Source of the DNA: Thermoplasmatota archaeon
GTDB lineage: Archaea > Thermoplasmatota > JAKEGO01 > JANQNJ01
Assembly: GCA_028279645.1 (NCBI GenBank)
Contig: JANQNJ010000023.1
Coordinates: 11,754 to 35,753 of the forward strand
Direction: 5' to 3'
Length of the DNA: 24,000 nucleotides
Shown here: positions 4,648 to 19,632 of the stretch, piece by piece
Layout: the number at the start of each line of letters is the position of its first letter
Numbering within the stretch: the first letter of the stretch is position 1
Notes under the pieces: generated by a model
What the model saw: only the letters and a program-made list of their open reading frames with translations
Database searches by the model: none
Told to the model about the DNA's origin: nothing
Translations under genes and position numbers: made by a program

Positions 4648-7600
4648 TCAATCACTTCTGTTGGTGTAACAACGTCTGAACTGACCTTCCTTTTCGAGCC
4701 TGACCTTGCCGATCCTCTCAAGCATCTTGATGTTGTAGTTCACGGTCTGCTGTCGCTTTTCAAGGATCTTGGCGATCTCCTTCTGGAAGATACCCGGGTG
4801 AGACTCGATGGTCTTCAAGATGTCGATCTGAAGCTCACTCAGTCTGAACTTCTCATCCTTTGGGAACTTCATTCCTGTTGGATAGAAGGCTCTGAACCTG
4901 AGCCCTTCTCTTCGAGATTTTATCAGTTCCATCTTCTCTAGTGTGTAGAGATGATGAGAGAGTGTACCGTTTGTAACCTCAAGTTCCTTTAGGATCTTCG
5001 TATAGTGTACACCAGGATTGGTCTTCACGTAGCCGTAGATCTGGCCCCGGACGAAGTTGTCGAGGACCTCGTCCTTGGAGCGATCCTTCATTCGGGCATA
5101 CATCGATGCGAATGCGCCTATCAATAGGAACTTTCCTGTTTCGGTGAGGGCGATCAACGAAATTACAGACAGGCTGATAATTGCGCCTATCCCGACCTTC
5201 TCTGATGGCGAGAGTGGTCTGATTATGGAACCGTCATCGCTTTCGCTCCTCGGGTCTTCATCATCGGTGGAATTATTCTTAATGAAGATGTAGATAACCT
5301 TGGTATTGGAAAAGTGGTTGCCATCATAGGACCTTAATGAGACGGTGGTATTACCATTAGGGAAATCCGTGATCGGCAATGATATGGTCCACAGGTCGGT
5401 ACCATTGGCGATATTCCAAGTATCATTTGCGATCTTGATATTTACTGAGACTACAATTCTATTATCAGAAGCGCTTCCCGCCAGCGTCAGAACATCAGAG
5501 ACCACGGTTCCATTTAGTGGAGCTGAAATGGATATTGATGGTGGTTTTTGATCTCGAGTGTTACCAGGTTGCATCAACGGATAGATATCTTTGCTATTAC
5601 CACCCCCATCTATTGGGTATGATGTATCCCCTATGCCGTCATTGTTATGATCGGTCCCGTTGTAATCAGACCAATAATTACCTCCGCTCCCACTGTACCA
5701 CGTGTTTTCATTCGAGTCATCATTGCATTGTGATCGAGAGACCTTGTTATCAATGAACATATTTTGAGTGACAACGTTATCTCCAGTTTGGTTCTCGTGA
5801 TTTCTGAAATCTATCCCATAGCCATCGTTATTGGAGATATTGTTGTAGGTAATCGTTATTCTATTCCCAAATATATCTAAGCCCTCAGCCGAATTCCCAA
5901 TTATTGTACAATTATCAATCAGTATGTCATGAGCGGAAATGTCAATGCCTGAAGACCCTGAATTGGAAATTGAACTATTCAGTATCATCGCATGATTAGT
6001 TCCCCATAAATAAAGACCATCATAGTTACTATTCTCAATTGTGCAATTTCGTATAGTTAAATAATCACCGTTATGAAGATAAATACCATGGGCGGCGGAA
6101 TCATTCACAATAGTATCACGGATTTCATTTGTAAGGTTATATGGATTACGACCCTCGATCTTAATGCCATAGGATTTTTCAATTATGCAGGAGGTTATCG
6201 TATAACCTGAATACTCTTCTAACCGAATCCCGTCTGGATTGTTCTTGAATGTACAATTGTCAATGATCACATGATAGAATTCGTTCTCTCTCCTTGGATC
6301 CCGCCCGAAAATGGAGAATTCATCGTTGTTCTTGAAAGTACAATTACGTACTGTTAAATTCGATCCGGAAAATCGCAAACCGTTATAATTACCGTTCATG
6401 GTGGAATTTTGAATAGTAAGGAAGTTGCCTTGATGATAGATCCCTACGCCAGTGTGATCTTTTATGATGCAATCGGATAGAGTAACATGATCTCTTCGAT
6501 TGATCTCGCAACCACTTCCTCTATCTGTCGAAGAAAGAATAGTGAATCCGTGGACAGTGACTCTATTTGCGGATATCAGTAGGGGGTCTTCGTCATCGGT
6601 TTTACCATTTCCAATGATCGTTGTGTTCGCCGAGCCGTTACCGATTAACTTTATCCTTTTTGTAATATTGACGAAGGAATTATAGGTACCATTGAACACG
6701 TAAATCGAATCATATGGGTTCGAATTATTGATGGCGTCCTGTATACTGGTATAGTTGGACCAGTTACCCACATCGTCATCTACAACCCAAACTGTGGGTG
6801 AAGGAAGTTCGATGTCTCTCATCATCGGATAAATATCCTCTGATCCAGATGTTCCCGAGATCGTCATTGGTTGATCACCGGTTCCATCAATATCAAGATC
6901 GGTTCCCGAATAATCAGACCAATAATTTCCTTCGCCGATTTGATACCAACTGGTTCCACCGCAATTGTCTAGGGCTTGGGTCTCGTTGCCGTTGTTCCAG
7001 ATGAAGTCGTTATCATAAACCAGATTCTGTGAGAAGGAATAGTTTCTCGAGAAATGTTTATTTGGCGAGAACCTGACTCCATATCGGGAGTTGTTATCGA
7101 TTGTATTGTGTGTGATCGAAATGTTGTAAAAATGACCTGATCGATCAGGATTGAAATCGATTCCGTAAATATGATTCCGGCTAATTGAATTGTTAGATAT
7201 CTGAACATTGTTCGTGTTATCCATGCAGAACCCAGATCGAACATTACCTACCAATTCGTTATCCAGAACCAGGAGTCCCGCCACATTACCTGTTGTCCAA
7301 ATTCCATTATAACCGTTGTATCTACAAGAATTGTTGATGACTGAAGAATTAAAACTATCATAGATCACTGAAATTCCATCAACATCGTTGTATTCACAGG
7401 TATTGTTCAGAATGAAAGTATTTTCTGAGCTATAGAACATTAATCCTCTTCCTTTGTTTTCAAAGATGATGTTTCCATCGATCCGACTATTGTTCACATA
7501 ATAGAAATCTAATCCACCATCATTATTTGAGACTAGATTATCTTCAAACGTGAGGTTGTAGCAATTCCTTGCGATGACTGCATCATCATTGTTCGCAATG

Positions 7601-8004
7601 TTAAGCTTGTAAAAGGAGCAATGAGAACTATTAAAGAGTTCGATACCGCAATATTTTATTTTATTACTATGGATCTCACCGCTGTTCCTAATTGTCAATG
7701 AGGAAATATGAACATTATCGCTTATGATTCTGATTACATCCCCGATATTATCTCCATCAATAATGGTATTCGAACCGTTTCCAATGATTGTCAAGGGTTT
7801 CGAAATTCGGACACGTTCTATGTAGGTGCCGTTGAATATTCTTATTGTGTCAAATTCCGAAGTTCCATTATAGGCTTCTGCGAGTGTGTTGAAATCCGCT
7901 CCCGCCCAATCATCATCAACGATCCAAGTCTTCCCACTCCCGTTACCCGCCACCAGCACGAGAATAAATAAAAGACCTCCCATGATATACACATAATGTC
8001 TCAT
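4648..8004 (-). CDS. Giant surface beta-helix protein with C-terminal TM anchor and cytoplasmic double winged-helix module, paralog A (1118 aa)
   Basis: Complete ORF in the track. The N-terminus MRHYVYIMGGLLFILVLVAGNGSGKTWIVDDDWAGADF is signal-peptide-like. There are two beta-helix modules with many 20-25 aa PbH1-like coils (I.NN...GI.L..S.N..I.NN). The module ends are GNYWSDYSGTDLDIDGTGDQP...DIYPMM and GGNYWSDYNGTDHNNDGIGDTSYPI...DIYPLM. An Ig-like stalk follows (PPSISISAPLNGTVVSDVLTLAGSASDNR...), then an acidic linker, a hydrophobic segment VGIGAIISLSVISLIALTETGKFLLIGAFASMY, and two wHTH-like domains. Confidence 0.9.
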   Translation of the reverse strand: MRHYVYIMGGLLFILVLVAGNGSGKTWIVDDDWAGADFNTLAEAYNGTSEFDTIRIFNGTYIERVRISKPLTIIGNGSNTIIDGDNIGDVIRIISDNVHISSLTIRNSGEIHSNKIKYCGIELFNSSHCSFYKLNIANNDDAVIARNCYNLTFEDNLVSNNDGGLDFYYVNNSRIDGNIIFENKGRGLMFYSSENTFILNNTCEYNDVDGISVIYDSFNSSVINNSCRYNGYNGIWTTGNVAGLLVLDNELVGNVRSGFCMDNTNNVQISNNSISRNHIYGIDFNPDRSGHFYNISITHNTIDNNSRYGVRFSPNKHFSRNYSFSQNLVYDNDFIWNNGNETQALDNCGGTSWYQIGEGNYWSDYSGTDLDIDGTGDQPMTISGTSGSEDIYPMMRDIELPSPTVWVVDDDVGNWSNYTSIQDAINNSNPYDSIYVFNGTYNSFVNITKRIKLIGNGSANTTIIGNGKTDDEDPLLISANRVTVHGFTILSSTDRGSGCEINRRDHVTLSDCIIKDHTGVGIYHQGNFLTIQNSTMNGNYNGLRFSGSNLTVRNCTFKNNDEFSIFGRDPRRENEFYHVIIDNCTFKNNPDGIRLEEYSGYTITSCIIEKSYGIKIEGRNPYNLTNEIRDTIVNDSAAHGIYLHNGDYLTIRNCTIENSNYDGLYLWGTNHAMILNSSISNSGSSGIDISAHDILIDNCTIIGNSAEGLDIFGNRITITYNNISNNDGYGIDFRNHENQTGDNVVTQNMFIDNKVSRSQCNDDSNENTWYSGSGGNYWSDYNGTDHNNDGIGDTSYPIDGGGNSKDIYPLMQPGNTRDQKPPSISISAPLNGTVVSDVLTLAGSASDNRIVVSVNIKIANDTWNIANGTDLWTISLPITDFPNGNTTVSLRSYDGNHFSNTKVIYIFIKNNSTDDEDPRSESDDGSIIRPLSPSEKVGIGAIISLSVISLIALTETGKFLLIGAFASMYARMKDRSKDEVLDNFVRGQIYGYVKTNPGVHYTKILKELEVTNGTLSHHLYTLEKMELIKSRREGLRFRAFYPTGMKFPKDEKFRLSELQIDILKTIESHPGIFQKEIAKILEKRQQTVNYNIKMLERIGKVRLEKEGQFRRCYTNRSD
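4651..5202 (-). other. TM segment (about 5098-5202) plus 149-aa cytoplasmic tandem winged-helix-turn-helix tail (4651-5097) of paralog A
   Basis: The tail reads ARMKDRSKDEVLDNFVRGQIYGYVKTNPGVHYTKILKELEVTNGTLSHHLYTLEKMELIKSRREGLRFRAFYPTG (wHTH 1) and LSELQIDILKTIESHPGIFQKEIAKILEKRQQTVNYNIKMLERIGKVRLEKEGQFRRCY (wHTH 2). Both follow the ArsR/MarR/TrmB-type helix-turn-helix-wing pattern. The basic residues directly after the hydrophobic stretch (ARMKDRSK) fit the positive-inside rule, which would place the tail in the cytoplasm. Confidence 0.7.
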
Positions 8005-8097
8005 TGAATGCTCCTCCTGATGCAGCCAAAGGGGGCGTCGAAATCCATTTGATCCCCTGTGTATATCATAGAACGTGGACTACGGCTTATATACAAA
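8001..8097 (-). promoter_or_regulatory. Promoter and conserved leader of paralog A: TATA-like box, conserved ATGATATACAC motif, uORF, SD-like GGAGGAG
   Basis: The minus strand reads TTTGTATATAAG (plus 8086-8097), then about 20 nt later ATGATATACACAGGGGATCAAATGGATTTCGACGCCCCCTTTGGCTGCATCAGGAGGAGCATTCAATGA. Most of this is shared with the leader of paralog B. The uORF encodes M(IYTGDQM)DFDAPFGCIRRSIQ. It starts at 8069 or 8048, and its TGA (8003-8001) overlaps the main ATG (8004-8002). Confidence 0.5.
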
Positions 8098-8163: not shown

Positions 8164-11100
8164 TTACTCGGTGTTATCTGAGTAACACCGCTTAAGCCGC
8201 CCTTCCTTCTCCAGTCTGACCTTCCCCACCCTTTCCAGCATCTTGATATTATAATTAACAGTCTGCTGCGGCTTCTCCAATGTCTTGGCCACTTCCTTCT
8301 GGAAGATGCCGGGATGATCCTCGATCAGCTTGATTATGTCGACCTGGAGGTCGGTCAGTCGGAACTTCTCCTCCTCGGGGAACTTCATTCCTGTGATGTA
8401 GAACGCTTTGTAGCGCAAGCCCTCGGTCCGTGATTTTATCAAGCCCATTTTCTCCATTGTGTAGAGATGGTGAGAGAGGGTTCCGTTGGTGATCCCAAGG
8501 GCTCTCTTAAGCTTTCCATAATGGGAGCCGGGGAAGGCGGTGAGGTATCCGTAGATCTGTCCGCGGACGAAGTTGTCGAGGACCTCGTCCTTGGAACGTT
8601 CCTTCATACGGGCATAGGCTGCCAATGCACCCGCGAACAAGGCGTATCGTCCTGTCTCTGTCGCTAGAAACATGAGAAAGAGGGATGCGCCGATCCCGGC
8701 CCCGATCGGGATGATCGGGAGTGCGGAATCGGATCCGCCTCCTTCCTGACCTCCATTGCCGCCGCCGCCATTCGAGGAGGTGGTCTTGTTCACATTCAGG
8801 GTGACCGAGGATATATTGGAATAGTGTATGCCATCGAAGGACCGGAGATCGATAGTTACTGATCCGTTGGGTAGCATAGACGATTTGAGATTCAAACTCC
8901 AGTTCGATGTTCCCGATACCGCTTTCCAGGTCCCGTTATCTATTCTGTACTGGACGATCTGCAGGAATCTGTTGTCGGAGGCAGAGCCTTCGATAGTGAC
9001 ATTGCCGGTAACGACCGTTCCGTTCATTGGTCCGTCGATGGAGACCGTTGGCGGTTCGGAATCCCAGGCATAGGTCTTTTCGGTCAGGGGATACCTGTCA
9101 GTGTTGTTCTTAGGGGTGTCCAATGGCACATACCCGATGACATAAGGGACCTCGCCGATCCCGTCGTTGTTGATATCGTAACCCGTGTAATCGGACCAGT
9201 AGTTCCCGATCGTTCCATTGTCCCAGTAATTCTTGCCGTCCCCGCCCTCTGCCGCCTGAGAAGTGAGGTTGCCGGAATTGCCGTAGAACTGATTATTGTA
9301 TACAACGGTGCCCGTGCTCTGACCGATCTCAACACCCAGATCGTTATCGGAGATCAAACAACGGGTCACGGTGATGTTATCTGCCCTGTAGATATAGATC
9401 CCAGATTCGGTGTTGTTGTGAACATAGCACCCATCGACCACGATCTTGATCTTGGTCCTATAGAACCTTAATCCTGAATAGTCATTGTGCGAAGCCTCAC
9501 AAGAAGTGATCGAGACATTGTCCATGTCCCCATCGAATTCAAAACCATAGTATCCAGTGTTCGAGGCAAGGCACTCCTGAACGGTCAGATTCGAGCAATC
9601 CCTTAGGTCGAAACCTGTGTTGTTCGTGCCGTTCACGCGGACATTCTGGATCTTGGTGTCATTACAATTCGCGATGACGATTCCGCGGATGTGTTCTCCG
9701 CTGCCATCGACAGAGATATTTAATAATGTGACATGATCGGACCTGGAGATCTCCAATCCGCCAAGTGAGTTATTGAGCACGACATCTTCAATAACGACCT
9801 TATCAGAAAATGAGATGTCTACACCGTACCAGCTGCCGCTGATATTTGTATTCGATATCGAGATATCGTTCGACCGATATCCGGAGATACCAGATTCCTG
9901 CAATGTGGCTGAAGAGACCATGATGTTATCGCTCTCATAGATACTGATCCCTGTGGACGATATACCACTATCTATCAAATGGTTGCAATTAATGATCGAA
10001 ACGTGTGAGCTGTAATCGATGTTGACAGCAATCTGTGTATCGTCGAAGAGAACGTCATCGATGTCCACATAGGAAGATCTATCAAGATCGATGCCGATCC
10101 GGTTCCTGACGAATTCATTCCTCTTCAAGGTGATGTAGGAACCATTTGCAGTTATTCCAAAGGAGGCGTTAATGATCTTCACATCATTGATCTTACAATG
10201 ATCGCCGTTTATCTCGATGGCATCATTACGAGGGTCATCGTTATGATATTCAATGACCAGGTCCGTGATGGAACATTGATCGGTTTCCACGTTGATGATC
10301 GTAATATTCTCGATCCCTGACAGCACTGTATCAGTACCGTTCCCTTTGATCCGCACAGGTATATCGATATTGATCGTCTCACTGTACTGACCGTCATAGA
10401 CAAGGATGAGCTCGCCACCGACCGACGCATTAAGAGCATCACCGATCGTACTGAAGTTCGCTCCAGCCCAGTCGTCATCCACGATCCAGATAGCGGAGGT
10501 TGGTCTAGGATCTGAACCCCCCCAGGGCTCCATCATCGGGTACCTATCGATCACGATGTCCTCTTCAATGATGTGGGGCTGGTCACCGACACCATCGTCG
10601 TCCTCATATGTCCCGCCGTAGGTCGACCAATAATTACCATGGGAGCCGTTGTCTAGGTAAATCACCTCTTCCGAAGAAGAATCGTAGGTGCATTGCTCCC
10701 ACCCATTATTGTTATCGATGAAATTATTGTGATGGATACTATATTCAGTAGAATCACCGACCAATGTTAGACCTTCTCGGCTATTGTTCCGGATAGTGGA
10801 GTTCGTGAGTACCAATTCTTCAACGTAAAGATAGGCTCCAACACCATCATTATCCTCGATAAGGACCCTATCCATTAGGACAGGATCTGACCACATCATG
10901 CTCATACCGCCCCAATCGTTCCCTGTAACCGTTATATTTTCCATTGTTATCGAGGAATCGTCTATTTCGCATCCGTAACGATAGTTGACAGATAGCGTCG
11001 CGTTTTTCAGAGTTCCTAAAGAGCCATCTACCTCTAATCCAGATTCACCATTGAACGAACAATTGATCCAGTTCAATGAGAAATGATCTGTGCGATCAAT

Positions 11101-13722
11101 GAGCAGCCCCTGTTCTTCATTCTCAGAGAAGGTGCAGTTTTCGATCAATAAATTCGTATAATCTCTTGCCATGATCCCGCTCTCACCATTGAACGATATG
11201 TTGGAGTTCCGAACGATCAAGGTGGCATTCGAGCTATAATCTGCTAATAGCCCTTCATTCCTTGAATCGATTATCATGGAATTATTGATCTCGACAAATC
11301 GGGTGTTCTCGATCATGATCCCCTCTCTTCCCGAATCGGTGATCGAAACGTTTTCGATATTAATTTCCTCGCTACGTTCAATTAGCAGCGCTGTGTCTGT
11401 AGTATTTGAGATGGTGAGATCTCGAATCCGTATATCGTTCGATTCGTGTATATACGACCCGTAATAGCTCGAGGGACTATTATCCCCAACGATCGTTAGG
11501 TTCTCACAATAATATATCATAAATTGACCTATATCGCCGATGAATATCTGATCTTGGAGGTTCTGTAACAGGAGGATGCTCGAACCTTCTGTCGATGTAT
11601 TGTGAATATAGTTATCCTCCATCCTGTCGGACCTGAACCCTCCATCGACGGTGCAATTGGAAATTGTATTATAACGCCCCGTGATCTGTATTCCCTCTTG
11701 GACTGTCTTAGTTATTGATGTATTATTTATCAACCCTTGATCAGAATTTGACAAGAGAACGGCTGCTTCCTCACAGCCCGTAATAGTGCAGTTCTCGATT
11801 GTGATCCGATCGCTGCTGGACCCATATATGGCTCTCAATGAAATGTTCAAGAACGAAGAATTTGAGATGAGGATATCATTGCATCGATACATTTTGATCG
11901 GTCTGGCTATATTCTCCAACGCCAAGGATTCGATCGAGATGTTGTGGCAGTCGTACATGATGAGCTGGCCGACCTCATTTCCGATGGCACTGTTGTTCTT
12001 TTCCTTCAAAATGACGAGAGGCCTGTCTTGAACGGTACAGTTATCAAGTGTGTATGTGTCTGAGTAATCAAGAGAAAATCCCATTGTTGTGGAACAATTC
12101 ACTAATGTGATCTCCTCTCCCAGCGAGATGATCACATCATCCCTTCCATTATCAAAAAATGAACAATTATTTATTGCCACATTATCGGTCAGCCGGATGT
12201 AAATGCCCTCCTCACTGTTGCTATAGACCTGGCTGTCCGATAAGGTAACTGAGTCGGAATGATCACACCTTAATCCAAGTGTACCATTCGATAGTGATGT
12301 CCCCTGGATATCGATGGACTCGGCCTCTTCAATAAAGATGCAATAAGATTCAGCCTGAACATCAAGTTCCTGGAAACTGAACTGGCTCCCGTTGATAATA
12401 AATATTCCGAATGAAGTTCCCTCGATCGAGCAGTTGGATATTGTTACTCGTTCGCATCCAGCTAGGTACATTCCATGGTACCCTCCAATCACCGACCAGT
12501 TAGAGATCTCTATGTCGGTGCAGTTAAGGAGGATCACCTGGCCTTCTCCACCATCCAACTGAATATTTGATCGTTTCTTTAGAAACGTGATCGGGTCACC
12601 CTTGAGGGAGCAGTTATCGATCTTATCGATATTAACAACGGTCCAATATGCCATTCCACTGTTGAATGAGCAGTCAACGAAGGAAAAAGATTCGCGACCT
12701 CTCGAATCGATGTCTATCCCTGAATTATTGAACGTACAGTTGCTGGCGAAGATCTCTTTGGCATTGTCCCGTATACCCTCCAGGGATCCGGTGATGATAC
12801 AATCGTACAGTTCTAAGTTCGAATCGCTTGGTGAGATGCCGTATTCATGATTATCGATCAGTACCGTGTTCGTCATCTCGATGTTAGATCGGCTTACTAT
12901 GAGTCCTGCTTTAAAGTGACCAATGTACGAGTCGGTGATCGAGCCGGTGATGATGTCTCTCATCCGTATGCCGATTCCGGTGCTGTTTGTCACGGTTACA
13001 TTCGAGATCGTCATCCTAGAAGCAGTGTAAATACCTGCAAAATCACCTCGGATATCCGATGCAGATACGTTGGTGACGATCACTTCATCGTTCCCGGAAA
13101 GGATCATGCTCCTCCCGCCATCGAACTGGCAGTCATCAATGGTCACACTATCTGAATCATAGACCCGGACATTGAAATCGGAAGATGAGAACATACTTTG
13201 CTCGATCGATATGTTCCCGCCGTTCCAAACCCATAGAGTACTGTCGCCACCGATATCAGAGGTTCCGGCCGACATATTGCAGTTCCTGAACGTAAGGTCG
13301 CCTGAATAAAGCGCTCGGAAACCGTGACCTGCTGAGTTCACAGTGAGGTTTGAAAAAAGACCAAGGTCTACATACCATAGTTCGATGCCAAATTCCTTTC
13401 TTCCTGAGGATATTGAAAAACCATCCAGTTGGAAAAATGATGCATTTACATCAAGCGTCTTCCCAGTGGATTCGATCTCCGACAGACCGGAACCATTTCC
13501 GATCAGTGATAGGTTCCGATCTACGACGACCTGTTCATGATACCGGCCATCATAGACCCTAATGACGTCATCGGGATCCGCACTGTCCACTGCATCCTGT
13601 ATCCGGTCGAAATCCGCACCTGCCCAGTCATCATCCACAATCCAGGTCCTTCCCCCGCACCCACCTACCACCATTACTAGAATAAGGAAAAGACCTCCCA
13701 TGATATACGCATAATACCTCAT
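8164..13722 (-). CDS. Giant surface beta-helix protein with C-terminal TM anchor and cytoplasmic double winged-helix module, paralog B (1852 aa)
   Basis: Complete ORF in the track. The N-terminus is MRYYAYIMGGLFLILVMVVGGCGGRTWIVDDDWAGADF. One very long beta-helix module of roughly 1000 aa carries dozens of coils marked by .NC(S/T). and ends at HGNYWSTYGGTYEDDDGVGDQP...DRYPMM. A second module starts at AIWIVDDDWAGANF and ends at GNYWSDYTGYDINNDGIGEVPY...DRYPL. Then come an Ig-like stalk (PPTVSIDGPMNGTVVTGNVTIEGSASDNR...), a Gly-rich linker, the TM segment LPIIPIGAGIGASLFLMFLATETGRYALFAGALAAY, and a double wHTH tail. Confidence 0.9.
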   Translation of the reverse strand: MRYYAYIMGGLFLILVMVVGGCGGRTWIVDDDWAGADFDRIQDAVDSADPDDVIRVYDGRYHEQVVVDRNLSLIGNGSGLSEIESTGKTLDVNASFFQLDGFSISSGRKEFGIELWYVDLGLFSNLTVNSAGHGFRALYSGDLTFRNCNMSAGTSDIGGDSTLWVWNGGNISIEQSMFSSSDFNVRVYDSDSVTIDDCQFDGGRSMILSGNDEVIVTNVSASDIRGDFAGIYTASRMTISNVTVTNSTGIGIRMRDIITGSITDSYIGHFKAGLIVSRSNIEMTNTVLIDNHEYGISPSDSNLELYDCIITGSLEGIRDNAKEIFASNCTFNNSGIDIDSRGRESFSFVDCSFNSGMAYWTVVNIDKIDNCSLKGDPITFLKKRSNIQLDGGEGQVILLNCTDIEISNWSVIGGYHGMYLAGCERVTISNCSIEGTSFGIFIINGSQFSFQELDVQAESYCIFIEEAESIDIQGTSLSNGTLGLRCDHSDSVTLSDSQVYSNSEEGIYIRLTDNVAINNCSFFDNGRDDVIISLGEEITLVNCSTTMGFSLDYSDTYTLDNCTVQDRPLVILKEKNNSAIGNEVGQLIMYDCHNISIESLALENIARPIKMYRCNDILISNSSFLNISLRAIYGSSSDRITIENCTITGCEEAAVLLSNSDQGLINNTSITKTVQEGIQITGRYNTISNCTVDGGFRSDRMEDNYIHNTSTEGSSILLLQNLQDQIFIGDIGQFMIYYCENLTIVGDNSPSSYYGSYIHESNDIRIRDLTISNTTDTALLIERSEEINIENVSITDSGREGIMIENTRFVEINNSMIIDSRNEGLLADYSSNATLIVRNSNISFNGESGIMARDYTNLLIENCTFSENEEQGLLIDRTDHFSLNWINCSFNGESGLEVDGSLGTLKNATLSVNYRYGCEIDDSSITMENITVTGNDWGGMSMMWSDPVLMDRVLIEDNDGVGAYLYVEELVLTNSTIRNNSREGLTLVGDSTEYSIHHNNFIDNNNGWEQCTYDSSSEEVIYLDNGSHGNYWSTYGGTYEDDDGVGDQPHIIEEDIVIDRYPMMEPWGGSDPRPTSAIWIVDDDWAGANFSTIGDALNASVGGELILVYDGQYSETINIDIPVRIKGNGTDTVLSGIENITIINVETDQCSITDLVIEYHNDDPRNDAIEINGDHCKINDVKIINASFGITANGSYITLKRNEFVRNRIGIDLDRSSYVDIDDVLFDDTQIAVNIDYSSHVSIINCNHLIDSGISSTGISIYESDNIMVSSATLQESGISGYRSNDISISNTNISGSWYGVDISFSDKVVIEDVVLNNSLGGLEISRSDHVTLLNISVDGSGEHIRGIVIANCNDTKIQNVRVNGTNNTGFDLRDCSNLTVQECLASNTGYYGFEFDGDMDNVSITSCEASHNDYSGLRFYRTKIKIVVDGCYVHNNTESGIYIYRADNITVTRCLISDNDLGVEIGQSTGTVVYNNQFYGNSGNLTSQAAEGGDGKNYWDNGTIGNYWSDYTGYDINNDGIGEVPYVIGYVPLDTPKNNTDRYPLTEKTYAWDSEPPTVSIDGPMNGTVVTGNVTIEGSASDNRFLQIVQYRIDNGTWKAVSGTSNWSLNLKSSMLPNGSVTIDLRSFDGIHYSNISSVTLNVNKTTSSNGGGGNGGQEGGGSDSALPIIPIGAGIGASLFLMFLATETGRYALFAGALAAYARMKERSKDEVLDNFVRGQIYGYLTAFPGSHYGKLKRALGITNGTLSHHLYTMEKMGLIKSRTEGLRYKAFYITGMKFPEEEKFRLTDLQVDIIKLIEDHPGIFQKEVAKTLEKPQQTVNYNIKMLERVGKVRLEKEGRLKRCYSDNTE
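8167..8724 (-). other. TM segment (about 8614-8724) plus 149-aa cytoplasmic tandem winged-helix tail (8167-8613) of paralog B
   Basis: The tail ARMKERSKDEVLDNFVRGQIYGYLTAFPGSHYGKLKRALGITNGTLSHHLYTMEKMGLIKSRTEGLRYKAFYITG...LTDLQVDIIKLIEDHPGIFQKEVAKTLEKPQQTVNYNIKMLERVGKVRLEKEGRLKRCY aligns with the paralog A tail without gaps. By hand count, 110 of 149 residues are identical. Confidence 0.7.
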
Positions 13723-16679: not shown

Positions 16680-18359
16680 CTACTTCCCCTTCTTCTGCAT
16701 CCGAGCCCATGTGTCCCTGAGTGTAACGCTCCTGTTCAGGACCTGTCGCTTCGAGGTCGAATCCGGATCGACGCAGAAGTATCCGAGCCGCTCGAACTGG
16801 AACCTATCGAAGACCGCAAGGTCGGTTATCGATGGCTCGACCTTCGCGTCCGGGATCACCTTCAATGAATCGGGATTGATGAGATCGGCGAGCTTCGCGT
16901 CCTTCTCGCCGAGCGGGTTCTCGACGGTGAAGAGACGGTCGTACAGCTTCACCTCGGCGTCGACCGCATGACGGGCCGAGACCCAGTGCAAGGTGGCCTT
17001 GACCTTTCTTCCATCGGGGGAATCGCCGCCTCGTGTGGCGGGATCGACGCTGCATCTCAGCTCGGTCACGGTGCCTTCCTCGTCCTTGATGACATCGTTG
17101 CATATCAGGAAATACGCATACCTTAACCGGACCTCGCGGCCGGGTGCCAGTCGGTAGAACTTTCGAGGAGGATCCTCCATGAAGTCGCTGCGTTCTATGT
17201 ACAGTTCTCTTGAGAATGGAACGGTCCTCGTCCCCGCCGACGGGTCCTCCGGATTGTTGACAGCATCGAGCCCTTCATCGTGGTCCTCGGGAAGGTTCTC
17301 GATGACGACCTTCAACGGATCGAGGACGCCCATGAACCTCGATGCTGTTCTGTTGAGCTCATCCCTGACCACCGATTCGAGAAGTCCCAGATCGATGATG
17401 TTCGCCTTCTTTGCGACGCCCACGCGCCTGAGGAACTCCCTGATGGCTGCAGGTGGATAGCCCCTTCTGCGCATGCTCCCTAGGTTCGGCATGCGAGGAT
17501 CGTCCCAGCCTTTCACGTGACCCTCCTCGACCAGCTGCCTCAGCCACCTCTTGCTCATGACGGTGTAGGTCATGTTCAGGCGCGCGAACTCCGTCTGCTC
17601 CGGATGATAGACCTCGAGCTGCTCGAGGAACCAGTTGTACAGCGGTCTGTGGTTCTCGAACTCGAGGGAGCAGAGGGAATGTGTGATCCGCTCGATGGAG
17701 TCGGATTGCCCGTGTGTCCAATCGTACATCGGATAGATGCACCAGTCGTCGCCGGTTCTGGGATGAGGCTGGTGAAGGATCCTGTACATAACCGGGTCGC
17801 GCATGTTCATGTTGGGATGGGCCATGTCGATCTTTGCCCTGAGCACATGAGCGCCGTCTGGGAACTCTCCCGCTCTCATCCTGGTGAACAGATCTAGATT
17901 CTCCTCTACGGAACGGTCCCGGTGAGGGCTGTTCCTGCCGGGCGTGGTCAGATCGCCGCGATACTCCTTGATCTCGTCACCGCTGAGGTCGTCCACGTAG
18001 GCTACGCCCTTGTTGATGAGCATCACGGCCCATTCGTAGAGCTTCTCGAAGTAGTCGGATGCGAAGTAGAGCCGGTCCTCCCAGTCGTAGCCGAGCCACC
18101 GGATATCCTCCATGATCGAGTCGATGAACTCCTGCTCCTCGGTGGCGGGGTTGGTGTCGTCGAACCGCAGGTTGCATAATCCCGTGTAATCCTCGGCTAC
18201 GCCGAAGTTCAACACGATGGACTTGGCATGTCCGATGTGCAGATAACCATTCGGCTCGGGTGGGAACCGCGTATGAACGCGACCCTCGAACTTGCCAGAG
18301 GCGTTGTCCTCGTCGATCTTCGTCCTTATGAAGTCATGCAGCTTCTCTTCTTCGCTCAT
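16680..18359 (-). CDS. glnS: Glutaminyl-tRNA synthetase (GlnRS), bacterial-type, with no eukaryote-like N-terminal extension
   Basis: [71 protein letters not shown] is collinear with E. coli GlnRS as I remember it ([71 protein letters not shown]). The match continues through [28 protein letters not shown](S/T)LEF, the VMSKR class I motif, [13 protein letters not shown]..(L/I)HWVSA, LYDRLF, FQFER.GYF and LRDTWA. I trimmed the start from the track's GTG 18413 to ATG 18359, which aligns with the E. coli N-terminus. Confidence 0.9.
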
Positions 18360-18459
18360 CTGATACTCTCCGTTCCAGGTCGTGCTCACCGACCCGGACC
18401 TCCTCGAAATCACGCTAGGATGATAATAAGGATTTGGGTCGGATCGGGACCACGCACGC

Positions 18460-18810
18460 TCAGAGCTCGAACGTCGTGGTCAGGAGCTTCTGCTCCTCCT
18501 CGCTCTTCATGGTGAACTCCGGGAAGTCGTTCATGTACTCATCGATCCCCAGTTCGGTGATGGAGATCCGATGATCGGGTTCGAGAGCGAGATATCCGCA
18601 TTTCATCAGATAGTCGATGACCTCGGCGTACTGGACCGAATCGAAGCGGGACCGGAGCTCGGGCTCGTGCTGAAGGATCTCGTCCGGAGTGAACGTCACG
18701 GAGGAGGAGCCTTCAACGTGCTCGTAGATCGCCGAGAGGAGGAACTTCCTGTCCTCAAGCTTCTCGAGCATCCTGCCCTTGTAGTCGTCGTGTACCTTTC
18801 CTTCGGCCAT
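18460..18810 (-). CDS. Hypothetical small acidic protein, first gene of the putative glnS operon
   Basis: The track ORF is 18460-18837 with a GTG start. The in-frame ATG at 18810 gives [32 protein letters not shown]... It is on the same strand as glnS and 100 nt upstream of it. A TATA-like box lies about 35-45 nt upstream. No recognisable family. Confidence 0.5.
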
Positions 18811-18842
18811 CTCTATCCAATTGGTTAACACAGCCACATGGA

Positions 18843-18854
18843 CTTATATTTTTT
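18843..18854 (-). promoter_or_regulatory. TATA-like box upstream of the hypothetical gene and glnS operon
   Basis: The minus strand reads AAAAAATATAAG, roughly 35-45 nt upstream of ATG 18810. Confidence 0.35.
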
Positions 18855-19024
18855 GGGACATCGCTCTGTACCGTTCGAATGGATTTAACACATCTATGAG
18901 GCCTAAATCCAGGCCAGAGAGGGAGAAACAAGCTCGAAGGGCGGGTCCAAGCGTCTACCAAGCATGGGTCCGAACATATTCCCGGCGCGGGACGTCCGTC
19001 GTTCCCGGCTATATTATACGTATA

Positions 19025-19111
19025 GAGCCCCGTCGACCGAGAGGCTTAAGAAGTATCTCAGCAGAACCGTTCTGGAGCGAATGTCAGGCTTAACCTCTCG
19101 GGTACGGGGCT
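19025..19111 (-). ncRNA. tRNA-Gln acceptor-stem-mimic long hairpin element, copy 2 (distal to the tRNA)
   Basis: The minus strand reads AGCCCCG-TA-C-CCGAGAGG-TTAAG...CCAGAACGGTTCTGCTG...CTTAAG-CCTCTCGG-TCGA-CGGGGCT-C. The closing 7-bp helix AGCCCCG/CGGGGCT is identical to the acceptor stem of the adjacent tRNA-Gln. The inner 8-bp stem is plus 19037-19044 paired with 19094-19101. The apical 10-mer (plus cagcagaacc, 19059-19068) is shared with copy 1. Confidence 0.5.
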
Positions 19112-19120
19112 ACGTATCCC

Positions 19121-19138
19121 AAAAATTAAAGAAAAGAG
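19121..19138 (-). terminator. Oligo-T tract after hairpin element copy 1
   Basis: The minus strand reads CTCTTTTCTTTAATTTTT immediately 3' of the element. T-rich tracts act as archaeal termination signals. Confidence 0.4.
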
Positions 19139-19225
19139 TAGCGCCGTCGACCATCGTGCTTAAGATGTATACCAGCAGAACCTAGCTGAAGCGCTTTTTA
19201 AGAATAACACGATGGGTACGGGGCT
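19139..19225 (-). ncRNA. tRNA-Gln acceptor-stem-mimic long hairpin element, copy 1 (proximal to the tRNA)
   Basis: The minus strand reads AGCCCCG-TA-C-CCATCGTG-TTATTCTTAA...GGTTCTGCTG...CTTAAG-CACGATGG-TCGA-CGGCGCT-A. The architecture matches copy 2. The inner 8-bp stem (plus 19151-19158 paired with 19208-19215) differs from copy 2 at five consecutive positions, each with the matching complementary change. The closing helix has one C:C mismatch. The 3' flank TCGACGGCGCTACTCTTTT mirrors the 3' flank of the tRNA. Confidence 0.5.
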
Positions 19226-19237
19226 ACGGCTCCCAAC

Positions 19238-19251
19238 ATAAATAAAAAGAG
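19238..19251 (-). terminator. Oligo-T tract directly after tRNA-Gln
   Basis: The minus strand reads CTCTTTTTATTTAT immediately 3' of the discriminator base. Confidence 0.4.
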
Positions 19252-19323
19252 TAGCCCCGTCGAGATTCGAACTCAAGTCGCGAGGTCCAGAGCCTCGCAT
19301 GATAACCTCTACACCACGGGGCT
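19252..19323 (-). tRNA. tRNA-Gln (anticodon CTG)
   Basis: The minus strand reads AGCCCCG TG GTGTAGAGGTTATCAT G CGAGG CTCTGGA CCTCG CGAC TTGAG TTCGAAT CTCGA CGGGGCT A. It has a perfect 7-bp acceptor stem, a 5-bp anticodon stem, and the loop C-T-CTG-G-A with T33 and a purine at 37. The T-loop TTCGAAT is canonical with a G53-C61 pair. T8, A14 and the GG in the D-loop are present. The first pair is A1-U72 and the discriminator is A73. CCA is not encoded. Length is 72 nt. Confidence 0.9.
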
Positions 19324-19386
19324 ATTACGAGCGTCCATGGGTATCGACCACGTCGAAACCTAGAACGAGAAATCTGTAATCCCGAG

Positions 19387-19402
19387 CATATATATATTTA
19401 TT
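19387..19402. promoter_or_regulatory. AT-rich TATA-like tract between the divergent tRNA-Gln and the small membrane ORF, possibly a bidirectional promoter
   Basis: catatatatatttatt lies about 40-55 nt upstream of ATG 19441 on the plus side and about 65-80 nt upstream of the tRNA 5' end on the minus side. No better TATA candidate lies closer to the tRNA. Confidence 0.3.
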
Positions 19403-19440
19403 GTGCAACGGAAGGTTTTTACTTCCATTGGCGCTTGTGG

Positions 19441-19632
19441 ATGCAGATAGCGATGTCCTTTGACTTCATCCTCATGCTGACCTTCTTCATTATGGCCCTG
19501 GTCTTCGGTAATCTGGCCTGGGTAGCGAAGCATGCCTGGAGGGACAGGAGGAGGACAGAGCTGTTCGTCTGGATCGCGGTCGTATCCACCATTGCGTTCA
19601 TGATAACGGCCTGGCCGTACATTCCGGATTGA
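19441..19632 (+). CDS. Small two-TM membrane protein (63 aa from ATG 19441)
   Basis: MQIAMSFDFILMLTFFIMALVFGNLAWVAKHAWRDRRRTELFVWIAVVSTIAFMITAWPYIPD has two clear hydrophobic helices separated by a basic loop. Its stop overlaps the TTG start of the next ORF (TTGA at 19629-19632). Confidence 0.4.
   Translation: MQIAMSFDFILMLTFFIMALVFGNLAWVAKHAWRDRRRTELFVWIAVVSTIAFMITAWPYIPD

Follow-up and report, generated by a model that had tools for sequence, protein, structure and literature searches.

A conserved family of tRNA-Gln-derived hairpins in Thermoplasmatota: putative acceptor-stem minihelix RNAs

Two tandem hairpins, W1 and W2, lie beside a tRNA-Gln gene in a 24-kb stretch of Thermoplasmatota DNA (the window, meaning the whole stretch that was analysed), and sequence comparison indicates that they belong to a previously undescribed, lineage-conserved family of tRNA-Gln-derived hairpins. 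The base of each hairpin copies the acceptor stem of the neighbouring tRNA-Gln, including the U at position -1 and usually the discriminator, and one long irregular helix takes the place of the D, anticodon and T arms. Our preferred reading, to which we assign a probability of about 45%, is that the hairpins are tRNA-Gln-derived acceptor-stem minihelix RNAs which would be made together with the tRNA and probably excised by RNase P and tRNase Z.

On the minus strand the tRNA-Gln(CUG) gene is followed by a spacer (CTCTTTTTATTTATGTTGGGAGCCGT), W1, a second spacer (CTCTTTTCTTTAATTTTTGGGATACGT) and W2; past W2, on the same strand, come an orphan ORF and then glnS. The order tRNA, T-tract, hairpin, T-tract, hairpin given in an earlier note on this DNA was thus retained: T5 tracts follow the tRNA and W1, and no T-tract lies 3' of W2. 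The features are as follows.

19388-19402, minus strand: TATA-like, AT-rich box AATAAATATATATAT, located some 65-80 nt 5' of the tRNA and recognised from its sequence only; candidate promoter of the array
19252-19323, minus strand: tRNA-Gln(CUG) of archaeal type (A1-U72, A73), identified by both ARAGORN and Rfam (RF00005, 57 bits); parent or template of the hairpin caps
19226-19251, minus strand: spacer 1, 26 nt, T-rich (CTCTTTTTATTTATG...), a homologue of spacer 2 through repeat D2; possible roles are tRNA trailer, oligo-T terminator and/or TATA-like box
19140-19225, minus strand: hairpin W1, 86 nt, plus a discriminator-like A at 19139; fold z -3.3, covariance model R1 65.7 bits
19218-19225, minus strand: W1 5' cap AGCCCCGT, equal to tRNA positions 1-8 (sequence; inverted repeat I2)
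19208-19215, minus strand: W1 inner stem, 5' arm CCATCGTG (fold; covariation)
19173-19182, minus strand: apical 10-mer GGTTCTGCTG in W1 (shared-block comparison)
19151-19158, minus strand: W1 inner stem, 3' arm CACGATGG, with the conserved TCTTAAG before it (fold; covariation)
19140-19147, minus strand: W1 3' cap ACGGCGCT, the tRNA 3' acceptor strand with one change that gives a C-C mismatch
19112-19138, minus strand: spacer 2, 27 nt, T-rich (CTCTTTTCTTTAATTTTTGGG...) (sequence; repeat analysis)
19026-19111, minus strand: hairpin W2, 86 nt, plus a C at 19025; fold z -4.7, covariance model R1 61.8 bits
19104-19111, minus strand: W2 5' cap AGCCCCGT (sequence; inverted repeat I1)
19094-19101, minus strand: W2 inner stem, 5' arm CCGAGAGG (repeat D3)
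19059-19068, minus strand: apical 10-mer GGTTCTGCTG in W2 (shared-block comparison)
19037-19044, minus strand: W2 inner stem, 3' arm CCTCTCGG (fold; covariation)
19026-19033, minus strand: W2 3' cap ACGGGGCT, giving a perfect 8-bp closing helix (sequence; fold)
18460-18810, minus strand: orphan 116-aa ORF between W2 and glnS, context outside the conserved module
16680-18389, minus strand: glnS, bacterial-type glutaminyl-tRNA synthetase (Pfam PF00749, PF03950, PF20974)

A homologue search with the orphan ORF found none and offered no route to relatives; its low-confidence structure model gave weak matches to MarR/DtxR-like folds, and the product is possibly a winged-helix protein. A TATA-like box, AAAAAATATAAG, lies just upstream of this ORF. 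The glnS operon of the earlier note is presumptive. The GlnRS encoded in the window is 69-72% identical to Thermoplasmata GlnRS and to bacterial GlnRS alike. A second assembly record, Logan SRR20820740, matches the locus over 3.66 kb at 100% identity; it possibly derives from the same reads.

Sequence and fold together confirmed that both hairpins are capped by tRNA-Gln acceptor-stem sequence. They share the 5' start (G)TAGCCCCGTACCC and the 3' end GGTCGACGG(G/C)GCT, and their minimum free energy folds are single long rod-like hairpins (-29.6 kcal/mol for W1 and -39.7 kcal/mol for W2; the z scores above are relative to dinucleotide shuffles). The closing helix, earlier described as 7 bp of tRNA acceptor sequence, has this origin but measures 8 bp, with U8 paired to A, and in W1 it contains a C-C mismatch (CGGCGCT). 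The internal loop above it is AC opposite UCG, not TA opposite TCGA as first proposed. The 8-bp inner stems, CCATCGTG/CACGATGG in W1 and CCGAGAGG/CCTCTCGG in W2, differ at five positions, and all five differences are compensated in the opposite arm, exactly as had been claimed. The identical apical 10-mer, GGTTCTGCTG, does occupy the same position (nt 44-53) in both copies; the shared block is longer than 10 nt and reads CGCU-CAG-N3-GGUUCUGCUG-N2-AUAC. As a whole, W1 and W2 form a 97-nt direct repeat with 72% identity and 114-nt spacing.

The hairpins are not tRNAs, as the earlier note had stated: ARAGORN made no call on them, the Rfam tRNA model matched only the true tRNA when 18950-19400 was scanned with cmscan at E<=10, and the folds are single rods. 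Both carry an acceptor-stem-like helix (the 7-bp AGCCCCG/CGGGGCU plus A or C, with the one C-C mismatch in W1). The T-arm-like elbow of t-elements and mascRNA was not found; there is no T-loop, and beyond a small internal loop the cap is continued by a helix of 8-13 bp. Together with TCG at 19148-19150, the W1 3' cap gives a copy of the tRNA 3' end, TCGACGGCGCT. Beyond the caps, the likeness to the tRNA is only local, comprising CTTAAG...TCGACGG in W1 and, in the 5' arm of W2, AGAGGTTA, which is identical to the tRNA D-loop 8-mer and stands in the same register (repeat D3); full-length homology between hairpin and tRNA was not significant without the caps (z -1.2 to +1.95). Because this D-loop 8-mer is in register, the divergent 5' arm of W2 points to an exchange with the tRNA that would have been followed by compensation in the 3' arm.

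The Rfam scan proposed in the earlier note matched the hairpins to no known RNA family. For C/D or H/ACA guide sRNAs only sub-threshold matches were obtained (snR73 at 16 bits against a cutoff of 37, sR35 at 12 against 60), and the hairpin sequences contain no C/D boxes, k-turn, H/ACA pocket or bulge-helix-bulge motifs. Tandem G-A pairs without a 3-nt bulge occur in the upstream hairpins of one relative (L142). An ORB-like replication origin was considered for the second subtype (TTCCAGTGAAGCC) and set aside, the spacing to the G-run being wrong and no orc1/cdc6 being present in the window. The integron attC and type III antitoxin-repeat analogies were dropped as well, since neither cassettes nor a conserved partner protein are present. 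No trans targets of the inner-stem sequences were found within the window.

Homologous hairpins of 26-88 nt were found in tandem with tRNA-Gln, on the same strand, at six other Thermoplasmatota loci, so that seven lineages carry the family (the window, L001, L095, L027, L137, L141 and L142). This agrees with the earlier suggestion of a small-RNA family derived from tRNA-Gln, the RNA itself being putative. Two subtypes were distinguished. Subtype 1 (GUGUUAU...UCUUAAGCAC) comprises the window, L001 and L095, and its covariance model R1 recovered an untrained, decayed copy, L001c (E 2e-4). Subtype 2 (GGCUAUUG...GUGAAGCC) comprises L027, L137 and L141, and its model R2 found an untrained copy at 5471-5537 of L141 (E 1e-4), downstream of a second tRNA-Gln. 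The relatives' hairpins have fold z scores of -2 to -6. Every copy has the orientation of its tRNA. Copies upstream of tRNA-Gln reuse the tRNA 5' end, whereas those downstream reuse up to 15 nt of its 3' end, usually with the discriminator; shorter upstream copies are present in L141, L142, L095 and L001. In L141 hairpins flank both tRNA-Gln genes, which lie one on each side of glnS, and in L141 and L142 upstream and downstream hairpins bracket the tRNA. The tRNA-plus-hairpin unit has been duplicated whole in L027 and L141, L027 has a pseudo-tRNA at 4969-5041 that Rfam missed, and decayed copies include L001c and L095b (fold z +0.4). Such head-to-tail arrays evolve via tandem duplication, copy decay and sequence exchange with the adjacent tRNA.

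The family is patchy, being absent from L086, L089, L091, L092, L093, L002 and the tRNA-Gln of L012, and therefore dispensable. Scans of the 24-kb window and of some 152 kb from related archaeal loci detected no copy away from tRNA-Gln, and control loci from bacteria and viruses, about 1.1 Mb in total, contained none at all. The matches listed by a metagenome pattern scan (AGCCCCKTNCC...TCTTAAR...CGGGGCT) were three chance ones within bacterial genes. A high-scoring GlnRS match, P0003, proved to be a bacterial locus with a duplicated domain and was set aside as a relative. At the L012 tRNA-Glu a hairpin followed by a copy of that tRNA's own 3' end lies 206 nt downstream.

The caps follow the local tRNA. 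Hairpin 3' ends copy 11-15 nt of it, including T-stem bases that differ between lineages (the variants are TCGA-CGGGGCT, GGC-CGGGGCT and ATCCGGA-CGGGGCTA), and direct repeats of the tRNA 3' end, 12-15 nt long, bracket each spacer-plus-hairpin. When counted from the sequences, the local A73 or G73 is present in 10 of 15 copies, and the T at -1, found in all real tRNA-Gln genes, is kept by most hairpins. In L141 the hairpin upstream of the UUG tRNA has U6-A67, that before the CUG tRNA C6-G67. The acceptor pairs 1-72, 2-71 and 3-70 of tRNA-Gln are reproduced in about half of the copies, and several copies are mismatched at 1-72 or 2-71. Since the caps are often imperfect (W1, L095a, L095c, L137a, L027b), exact acceptor mimicry is not strictly maintained.

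The earlier inference of selection on pairing was borne out beyond the window. In subtype 1, 81% of the cells were paired, compared with 39-56% in slid controls; five pairs showed double changes, and the covariation score was reached by 0 of 500 shuffles. In subtype 2, 82% of the cells were paired and 5 of 500 shuffles reached the score. A compensated block appeared again between paralogues of a second genome, L141 (GGGC/GCCC versus AGAAC/GUUCU). Between L001 and L095 the lower arms of the hairpins are 92-96% identical and the tRNAs 94%, whereas identity is 56% in the apical loop and 47-68% in the spacers and flanks. Between the window and L001 the corresponding values are 81-86% for the lower arms (W1 compared with L001b), 75% for the tRNA and about 50% for the spacer. 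The same irregularities, a U-G wobble, a bulged A and a U-U, persist across lineages, and L027a and L027b, only 72% identical, both have fold z < -4. These comparisons support selection on hairpin pairing. A perfect duplex whose sequence is strongly conserved is nevertheless met with more often in DNA or protein recognition than in a simple RNA helix, and the transcribed strand could not be read from G-U versus A-C pairs or per-strand folding energy: the four copies with U19-G67 are balanced by four with C11-A75, and the minimum free energies of the two strands are alike.

Under the preferred reading, we infer that transcription of the array follows the tRNA strand and begins at the promoter of the tRNA and/or at the AT-rich boxes in the spacers. 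The tRNA-like acceptor helix of each hairpin would then be offered to RNase P and tRNase Z, and the excised product would be a minihelix RNA of 64-88 nt that may receive CCA. Two roles are conceivable for the released RNA. It could be confined to punctuating, insulating or stabilising the transcript of tRNA-Gln, or a protein that binds tRNA-Gln could recognise it in trans as an imitation of the tRNA-Gln acceptor end. The T-arm and elbow on which archaeal RNase P usually relies are missing from the hairpins, which makes them a poor fit to this enzyme. The T5 tracts after the tRNA and W1 could mean that archaeal transcription ends before the hairpins. The 26-27 nt spacers are too short for a canonical TATA box with a start exactly at nt 1, and the starts predicted from AT boxes are mixed, falling near nt 1 in L001, L095 and L142 but, in the window, some 5-10 nt into the hairpin. 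An extension of this reading, which we consider unlikely, is that the expressed acceptor-end mimics co-evolved with a horizontally acquired bacterial-type GlnRS as the lineage switched from archaeal transamidation to direct charging. Freed by the tRNA-processing enzymes and CCA-tailed, the hairpins would bind GlnRS or a further reader of the tRNA-Gln acceptor stem, for example a non-discriminating GluRS or GatDE, would perhaps even be charged by GlnRS, and would tune or insulate Gln decoding.

Several other explanations were weighed. The hairpins could be non-functional or selfish DNA palindromes that arose by tandem duplication of tRNA-Gln, decay and gene conversion with the neighbouring tRNA; template-switch mutation would then make compensated changes in one step, with no selection on RNA. 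This account, which we regard as doubtful though deserving serious attention, is favoured by the birth-and-death arrays (the L027 pseudo-tRNA, L001c and L095b), the patchy presence among genomes with about 85% identical GlnRS, the concerted evolution seen in caps that equal local tRNA ends and in the L027 and L141 duplications, the absence of strand asymmetry and the related scar at the L012 tRNA-Glu. However, the inner stem has no tRNA counterpart to convert from and is still conserved at the levels given above for L001/L095 and window/L001, while in the loops and flanks of these loci drift has lowered identity to about 50%; the retained irregularities and the stable folds of the old paralogues L027a and L027b also speak against it. 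Much less probable, in our view, is the footprint of a mobile element, either MITE-like with acceptor-stem-like ends or an integrative-element remnant leaving att duplications at tRNA-Gln. The hairpin ends are inverted repeats (AGCCCCGT/ACGGGGCT and beyond), tRNA 3'-end direct repeats bracket the units, and conserved arms around a variable interior are MITE-family-like; archaeal tRNA fragments left by integrating elements are also well known (PMC9897764). The earlier note had named many genomic copies with target-site duplications as the sign of a MITE, but no copy lies off tRNA-Gln in the sequences searched, and the flanks of W1, W2, L001a, L001b and L095c share no direct repeat. L095a alone has a flank repeat, GAAAC on both sides. 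The hairpins keep the same position across lineages with lysK-tRNA-glnS synteny (L095, L137, L141), no integrase or transposase lies near them in the window, and no similarity was found in phage and plasmid collections. Forty inner-stem motif matches in viral contigs included none that was full-length under R1 (best 19.6 bits, partial) and were attributed to chance. The arm-to-arm covariation exceeds what integration scars explain, and a MITE identity is unlikely. An att-duplication scar is likewise unlikely: the 3'-end direct repeat is there, but the DNA it bounds is only about 100 nt and the window has no integrase.

The earlier note raised another explanation, in which GlnRS would bind the hairpins in the glnS leader as a tRNA-mimic operator or decoy acting in cis and so control its own production, in the manner of ThrRS at E. 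coli thrS. In the window, L001, L095, L141 and L142, glnS does follow the hairpins on their own strand, and the matched acceptor pairs 1-72, 2-71 and 3-70 in about half of the copies would suit such a role. However, promoter-like AT boxes sit downstream of the hairpins in the window (AAAAAATATAAG), L001 and L141, and therefore the hairpins are probably outside the glnS mRNA. The L027 array is divergent from glnS, in L137 an opposite-strand GTPase gene separates the two, one L141 copy lies downstream of glnS after the second tRNA, and in L086, L089 and L093 a tRNA-Gln stands directly upstream of glnS without any hairpin. Since the arrangement of array and glnS varies and hairpin-free tRNA-glnS loci exist, the constant partner is the tRNA gene. 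A T-box class was rejected too: Rfam gave no T-box match, and features such as a Gln codon loop or UGGN pairing to NCCA occur in some copies only, with no consistent specifier. We judge the operator improbable. The hairpins might instead be transcript-end structures of the tRNA-Gln unit, namely a terminator, an insulator or an exonuclease block, with no role as free RNA. Their position between tRNA-Gln and the next gene, the T-tracts (T4-T6 for hairpins) that follow the tRNA, W1, L001c and L095c, the hairpins on both sides of the tRNA in L141 and L142, and the free length of the apical part (26 to 88 nt overall) are in line with this. Yet oligo-T alone suffices for archaeal termination, many copies (W2, L001a, L095a) have no following T-tract, and a protective hairpin needs neither tRNA-identical caps nor a sequence-conserved irregular inner stem, which makes this explanation unlikely as well.

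Comparison with known systems places the hairpins apart from each. MALAT1 mascRNA is a tRNA-like processing signal, as is the tRNA-like structure that precedes 5S rRNA in Haloferax. Plant mitochondrial t-elements are such signals too (PMC1920247). Like these, the hairpins are non-tRNA, gene-adjacent structures with an acceptor-like helix, and cleavage by RNase P and/or tRNase Z is known or thought to occur in those systems. However, all of those signals keep a T-arm or elbow, whereas the hairpins are straight rods whose cleavage is only predicted, and which copy the exact ends of one neighbouring tRNA in tandem arrays with it. In murine gammaherpesvirus 68, the TMERs likewise are short units in which a tRNA or tRNA-like gene precedes one or two stem-loops, separated by tRNase Z; they are eukaryotic viral, Pol III-transcribed and feed the miRNA pathway, and their hairpins lack the acceptor mimicry seen here. 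The E. coli thrS operator and the Gram-positive T-box mimic or read the anticodon arm inside an mRNA leader. They share with the hairpins a tRNA-related RNA structure near an aminoacyl-tRNA synthetase gene; the hairpins mimic the acceptor end and follow the tRNA gene, not glnS. GlnRS microhelices are among the synthetase substrates used in vitro. Acceptor-stem minihelices and microhelices serve in this way, e.g., for AlaRS (PMC11392972). These laboratory constructs have, like the hairpins, an acceptor stem and discriminator and no anticodon arm, whereas the hairpins are genomic and conserved, carry an irregular extension and are at most putative substrates for charging. Archaeal integration fragments also lie next to an intact tRNA gene and copy part of a tRNA end, but here both ends are present and paired in a unit of <90 nt, with cross-lineage covariation and no element body. 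MITEs and REP-like elements are likewise short intergenic palindromes with conserved arms and a variable centre; the hairpins differ in showing no dispersed copies in the loci searched, in using one tRNA species only and in having caps that change with that tRNA.

According to a 2022 review, no known archaeon has GlnRS (PMC9499178). At the loci described here bacterial-type glnS stands on clearly archaeal contigs next to archaeal tRNA-Gln genes, some of which have switched their discriminator to the bacterial G73. An acceptor-end mimic RNA at this locus is an obvious candidate player in the integration of a foreign synthetase. The arrays are a source of false or missed tRNA calls and, even with non-functional hairpins, would still record tRNA gene birth, decay and concerted evolution. 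If expressed, the hairpins would be the first natural acceptor-stem minihelix family derived from, and co-evolving with, one specific tRNA, in which a tRNA gene would have been turned into a differently shaped RNA with its processing ends retained.

Reading 18,700-19,600 on the minus strand reproduced the layout described in the earlier note, in which tRNA-Gln is followed by two hairpins, W1 and W2, and then by glnS.

Features of the tRNA-Gln/glnS array in the window
19388-19402, minus strand: AT-rich box (sequence reading of 18,700-19,600)
19252-19323, minus strand: tRNA-Gln(CUG) (ARAGORN and Rfam RF00005, 57 bits)
26 nt, minus strand: T-rich spacer between tRNA-Gln and W1 (sequence)
19140-19225, minus strand: hairpin W1 (sequence, fold)
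27 nt, minus strand: T-rich spacer between W1 and W2 (sequence)
19026-19111, minus strand: hairpin W2 (sequence, fold)
18460-18810, minus strand: orphan 116-aa ORF, downstream of W2 and upstream of glnS
16680-18389, minus strand: glutaminyl-tRNA synthetase gene glnS (Pfam PF00749, PF03950, PF20974)

The 3.66 kb around the array are identical in a second assembly record, and the contig is archaeal, carrying an archaeal-type tRNA-Gln (A1-U72, A73), Pcc1, a KaiC-like ATPase and haloarchaeal-type HTH domains. The orphan ORF had no homologues among 5.8 billion proteins; its structural model (pLDDT 65, low confidence) is helix-helix-wing in layout, its MarR/DtxR-like matches are weak and non-significant, and the product may be a winged-helix regulator. 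Since 22 of the 105 glutamine codons counted over six long window ORFs are CAA, a tRNA-Gln(UUG) must exist elsewhere in the genome; it is absent from the window and is part of the same locus in the related loci L001, L095, L137 and L141. Elsewhere in the window, about 3.3 kb (400-3700) contain no ORF longer than 82 aa and have a lower G+C (0.43-0.47) than the right half (0.55-0.58), which is unusual in a compact archaeal genome; this stretch has no Rfam matches and no tandem repeats. Two very large paralogous proteins of 1118 and 1852 aa (4648-8004 and 8164-13722, both minus strand) have an odd architecture: numerous right-handed beta-helix/NosD repeats plus an Ig-like domain, joined to winged-helix DNA-binding domains of HVO_0163 and MarR type at the C terminus.

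W1 and W2 form a 97-nt direct repeat with 72% identity and a spacing of 114 nt, and each folds as one long hairpin (-29.6 kcal/mol, z -3.3, and -39.7 kcal/mol, z -4.7, respectively). Both start with (G)TAGCCCCGTACCC and end with GGTCGACGG(G/C)GCT, corresponding to U at -1 plus positions 1-8 of the tRNA at the 5' side and to its last 11-12 nt at the 3' side. The acceptor-stem cap proposed previously was thus confirmed, but the closing helix is 8 bp long rather than 7 and contains a C-C mismatch in W1, and the internal loop described as TA versus TCGA is actually AC opposite UCG. The compensated block held: the inner 8-bp stems, CCAUCGUG/CACGAUGG and CCGAGAGG/CCUCUCGG, differ at five positions, all five of which are compensated.

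The glnS loci of related archaea were fetched, most of which have tRNA-Gln genes adjoining glnS. Six of these loci contain hairpins with tRNA-Gln acceptor caps, in tandem with the tRNA and on the same strand. Subtype 1 has ...GUGUUAU... and ...UCUUAAGCAC... in common with W1, subtype 2 reads ...GGCUAUUG...GUGAAGCC..., and shorter hairpins of the family lie upstream of tRNAs in four loci.

Hairpin copies in the related glnS loci
L001: subtype 1 at 1228-1291 and 1519-1582; decayed copy 1611-1672; upstream copy 1324-1392
L095: subtype 1 at 1742-1805 and 1934-1997; decayed copy 1840-1902; upstream copies 1347-1420 and 1442-1508
L027: two subtype-2 copies
L137: subtype 2 at 1910-1977
L141: subtype 2 at 3393-3457; upstream copies 3180-3205 (26 nt) and 5217-5289
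L142: two upstream copies of 40-41 nt and one downstream copy

Most upstream copies fold far better than shuffled sequences (z -2.2 to -6.1), the exception being L095 1347-1420 (z -1.6). When a covariance model was trained on six subtype-1 copies, it picked up the decayed copy of L001, which was not in the training set (E 2e-4), and gave no further match across ~1.0 Mb of loci, bacterial glnS loci among them, and 0.3 Mb of sequence from viral and metagenome pattern matches. The model trained on four subtype-2 copies found one untrained copy (L141 5471-5537, E 1e-4), 87 nt downstream of tRNA-Gln(UUG), the second tRNA-Gln there. These searches support the family and its specificity. No copy matched Rfam. 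Presence is patchy, also among genomes with ~85% identical GlnRS; the family is hence dispensable. At L142, a tRNA-Gln(CUG) (~3071-3173, plus strand) whose anticodon loop is followed by an intron of ~30 nt escaped both ARAGORN and Rfam (gathering threshold); the two upstream hairpins and the downstream one bracket it.

In the subtype-1 alignment 81% of the cells are paired, compared with 39-56% when the partners are slid; double changes occur at five pairs, and the covariation score was reached by none of 500 shuffles. For subtype 2 the corresponding values were 82% and 5 of 500, with three Watson-Crick types at two pairs. The two downstream copies of L141 repeat the compensated pattern of W1 and W2, with inner blocks GGGC/GCCC and AGAAC/GUUCU between kept flanks (CUCG, UAUUG, GUrAAG, CUCGAU). 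The most telling comparison bearing on constraint is that of the orthologous arrays of L001 and L095, where the tRNAs are 94% and the lower arms of the hairpins 95.5% and 92% identical, whereas identity drops to 56% in the apical loop, 68% in the tRNA-hairpin spacer and 47-56% in the outer flanks. For window versus L001 the identities are 75% in the tRNA, 81-86% in the W1 lower arms and ~50% in the spacer. Conservation extends to irregularities common to the copies (a U-G wobble, a bulged A, a U-U). Because nothing in the tRNA corresponds to the inner stem, conversion from the tRNA gene cannot account for the conservation of that stem.

The caps track the tRNA beside them. Downstream copies carry 11-15 nt of its 3' end, including T-stem bases that differ between lineages (TCGA-CGGGGCT in the window, GGC-CGGGGCT in L001 and L095, ATCCGGACGGGGCTA in L137), and 10 of 15 copies, counted from the sequences, have the local discriminator (A, except in L001 and L095, where it is G). 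In upstream copies it is the tRNA 5' end that recurs, over 9-13 nt. At L141 each upstream hairpin agrees with the tRNA it precedes, with C6/G67 for CUG and U6/A67 for UUG. Outside the caps, overall homology between hairpins and tRNA was not significant. The divergent 5' arm of W2 holds AGAGGTTA, an 8-mer of the tRNA D-loop at an equal offset from the 5' end (repeat D3), for which the simplest history would be that W2 exchanged sequence with the tRNA gene and the 3' arm then compensated. At L027, an ARAGORN-called tRNA-Gln (4969-5041, minus strand) without an Rfam call is identical to the neighbouring true gene over its first 57 nt and has a broken 3' end (…CACGGGCGGAACA); it is a pseudo-tRNA inside the array. 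Together with the decayed hairpins, this implies that the arrays evolve by duplication, decay and concerted evolution.

Related motifs were also seen in tRNA leaders. That of the window tRNA-Gln (19324-19362, minus strand) has a short palindrome, TCGAC-GTG-GTCGA, built on tRNA-end sequence, and TCGAC occurs five times within 350 nt (twice in the leader, and in the tRNA, W1 and W2). In the tRNA-Gln leaders of L137 (1745-1800 and 4714-4750) the palindrome GTGGTGGCACCAC follows an AGCCC(C/T)T fragment. At L012, a 12-bp hairpin (CCUUUUCAUCUG/CAGAUGAAAAGG, region 8000-8055) lies 206 nt downstream of tRNA-Glu (7759-7832) and is directly followed by a copy of the tRNA-Glu 3' end with the first trailer bases (CCGTTGGGAGCACTTCTT); the pattern may therefore extend beyond tRNA-Gln.

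The best-supported reading, at a probability of about 0.45, is that the hairpins form a family of minihelix RNAs derived from tRNA-Gln. We infer that transcription would proceed together with the tRNA or next to it, on its strand, and that RNase P and tRNase Z would meet a tRNA-like acceptor helix accompanied by U at -1, a discriminator and a trailer rich in pyrimidines; cleavage by these enzymes would set the RNA ends. Once excised, the RNA could have a purely cis role, punctuating, insulating or protecting the ends of the tRNA transcript, or could imitate the tRNA-Gln acceptor end in trans with a putative protein partner. Against this stand the lack of a T-arm, the often imperfect caps, the absence of strand asymmetry between G-U and A-C pairs, and the oligo-T after the tRNA and W1, which might halt transcription. 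No T-tract follows W2, and a role solely as terminator or insulator seems improbable. The main rival, that the hairpins are non-functional palindromic by-products of a duplicating, decaying tRNA array, kept tidy by gene conversion and template-switch mutation, is unlikely though worth serious weight; the chief argument against it is the mosaic conservation, high in the lower arms and low in loop, spacer and flanks.

The proposal that the hairpins are an operator on glnS mRNA did not survive comparison of the loci and is very unlikely. Their constant neighbour is tRNA-Gln, not glnS: the array of L027 is directed away from glnS, an opposite-strand GTPase gene separates the two in L137, and in L141 hairpins surround tRNAs on both sides of glnS. 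At L086, L089 and L093 glnS starts 20-50 nt after the end of a tRNA-Gln that has no hairpin, a spacing suggestive of co-transcription of the two, and L091 and L092 have no tRNA near glnS. This varied layout, the hairpin-less loci and the AT-rich, TATA-like boxes that separate the last hairpin from glnS or the orphan ORF argue against a cis operator. The order class-I lysyl-tRNA synthetase, tRNA-Gln(CUG), hairpin(s), glnS is kept in L095, L137 and L141. In L137 and L141 tRNA-Gln(UUG) comes after glnS; in L141 a 5S rRNA gene (6512-6633) appears after another 1.3 kb.

Among known systems, mascRNA and the Haloferax 5S tRNA-like element, both tRNA-like processing signals, are close analogues, as are the herpesvirus tRNA-hairpin units. 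Such processing signals, e.g., plant mitochondrial t-elements (PMC1920247), are closest by mechanism, but their defining T-arm is absent from the hairpins, which fail the tRNA model outright. A MITE or an integration scar is the least credible origin, since target-site duplications and the integrase-bearing body of such scars (PMC9897764) are absent and no dispersed copy, away from tRNA-Gln, turned up in the window or in about 152 kb of related archaeal loci; phage and plasmid collections contained no DNA similar to the hairpins. We rate the hairpins among tRNA-derived or tRNA-mimicking structured elements, and a search of the literature gave no description of hairpins of this kind.

The glnS-adjacent tRNA-Gln genes of L001 (1125-1195, 1415-1485), L095 (1536-1606, 1639-1709), L086 (3907-3978) and L093 (2392-2463) have G73, the identity base of bacterial GlnRS, and those of the window, L027, L137, L141, L142, L089 and L012 the archaeal A73; L093 and L095 have a second, quite different tRNA-Gln type nearby. 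The window GlnRS is 69-72% identical to GlnRS of Thermoplasmata/Thermoplasmatota MAGs and of many bacteria. The bacterial-type enzyme is encoded on clearly archaeal Thermoplasmatota contigs in the window, L001, L002, L012, L027, L086, L089, L093, L095, L137, L141 and L142, where an archaeal-type tRNA-Gln nearly always adjoins glnS. According to a 2022 review, GlnRS is absent from all known archaea (PMC9499178), which makes the window locus unusual in its own right. The hairpins are of note mainly for their location, next to an archaeal gene for a synthetase that archaea reportedly lack.
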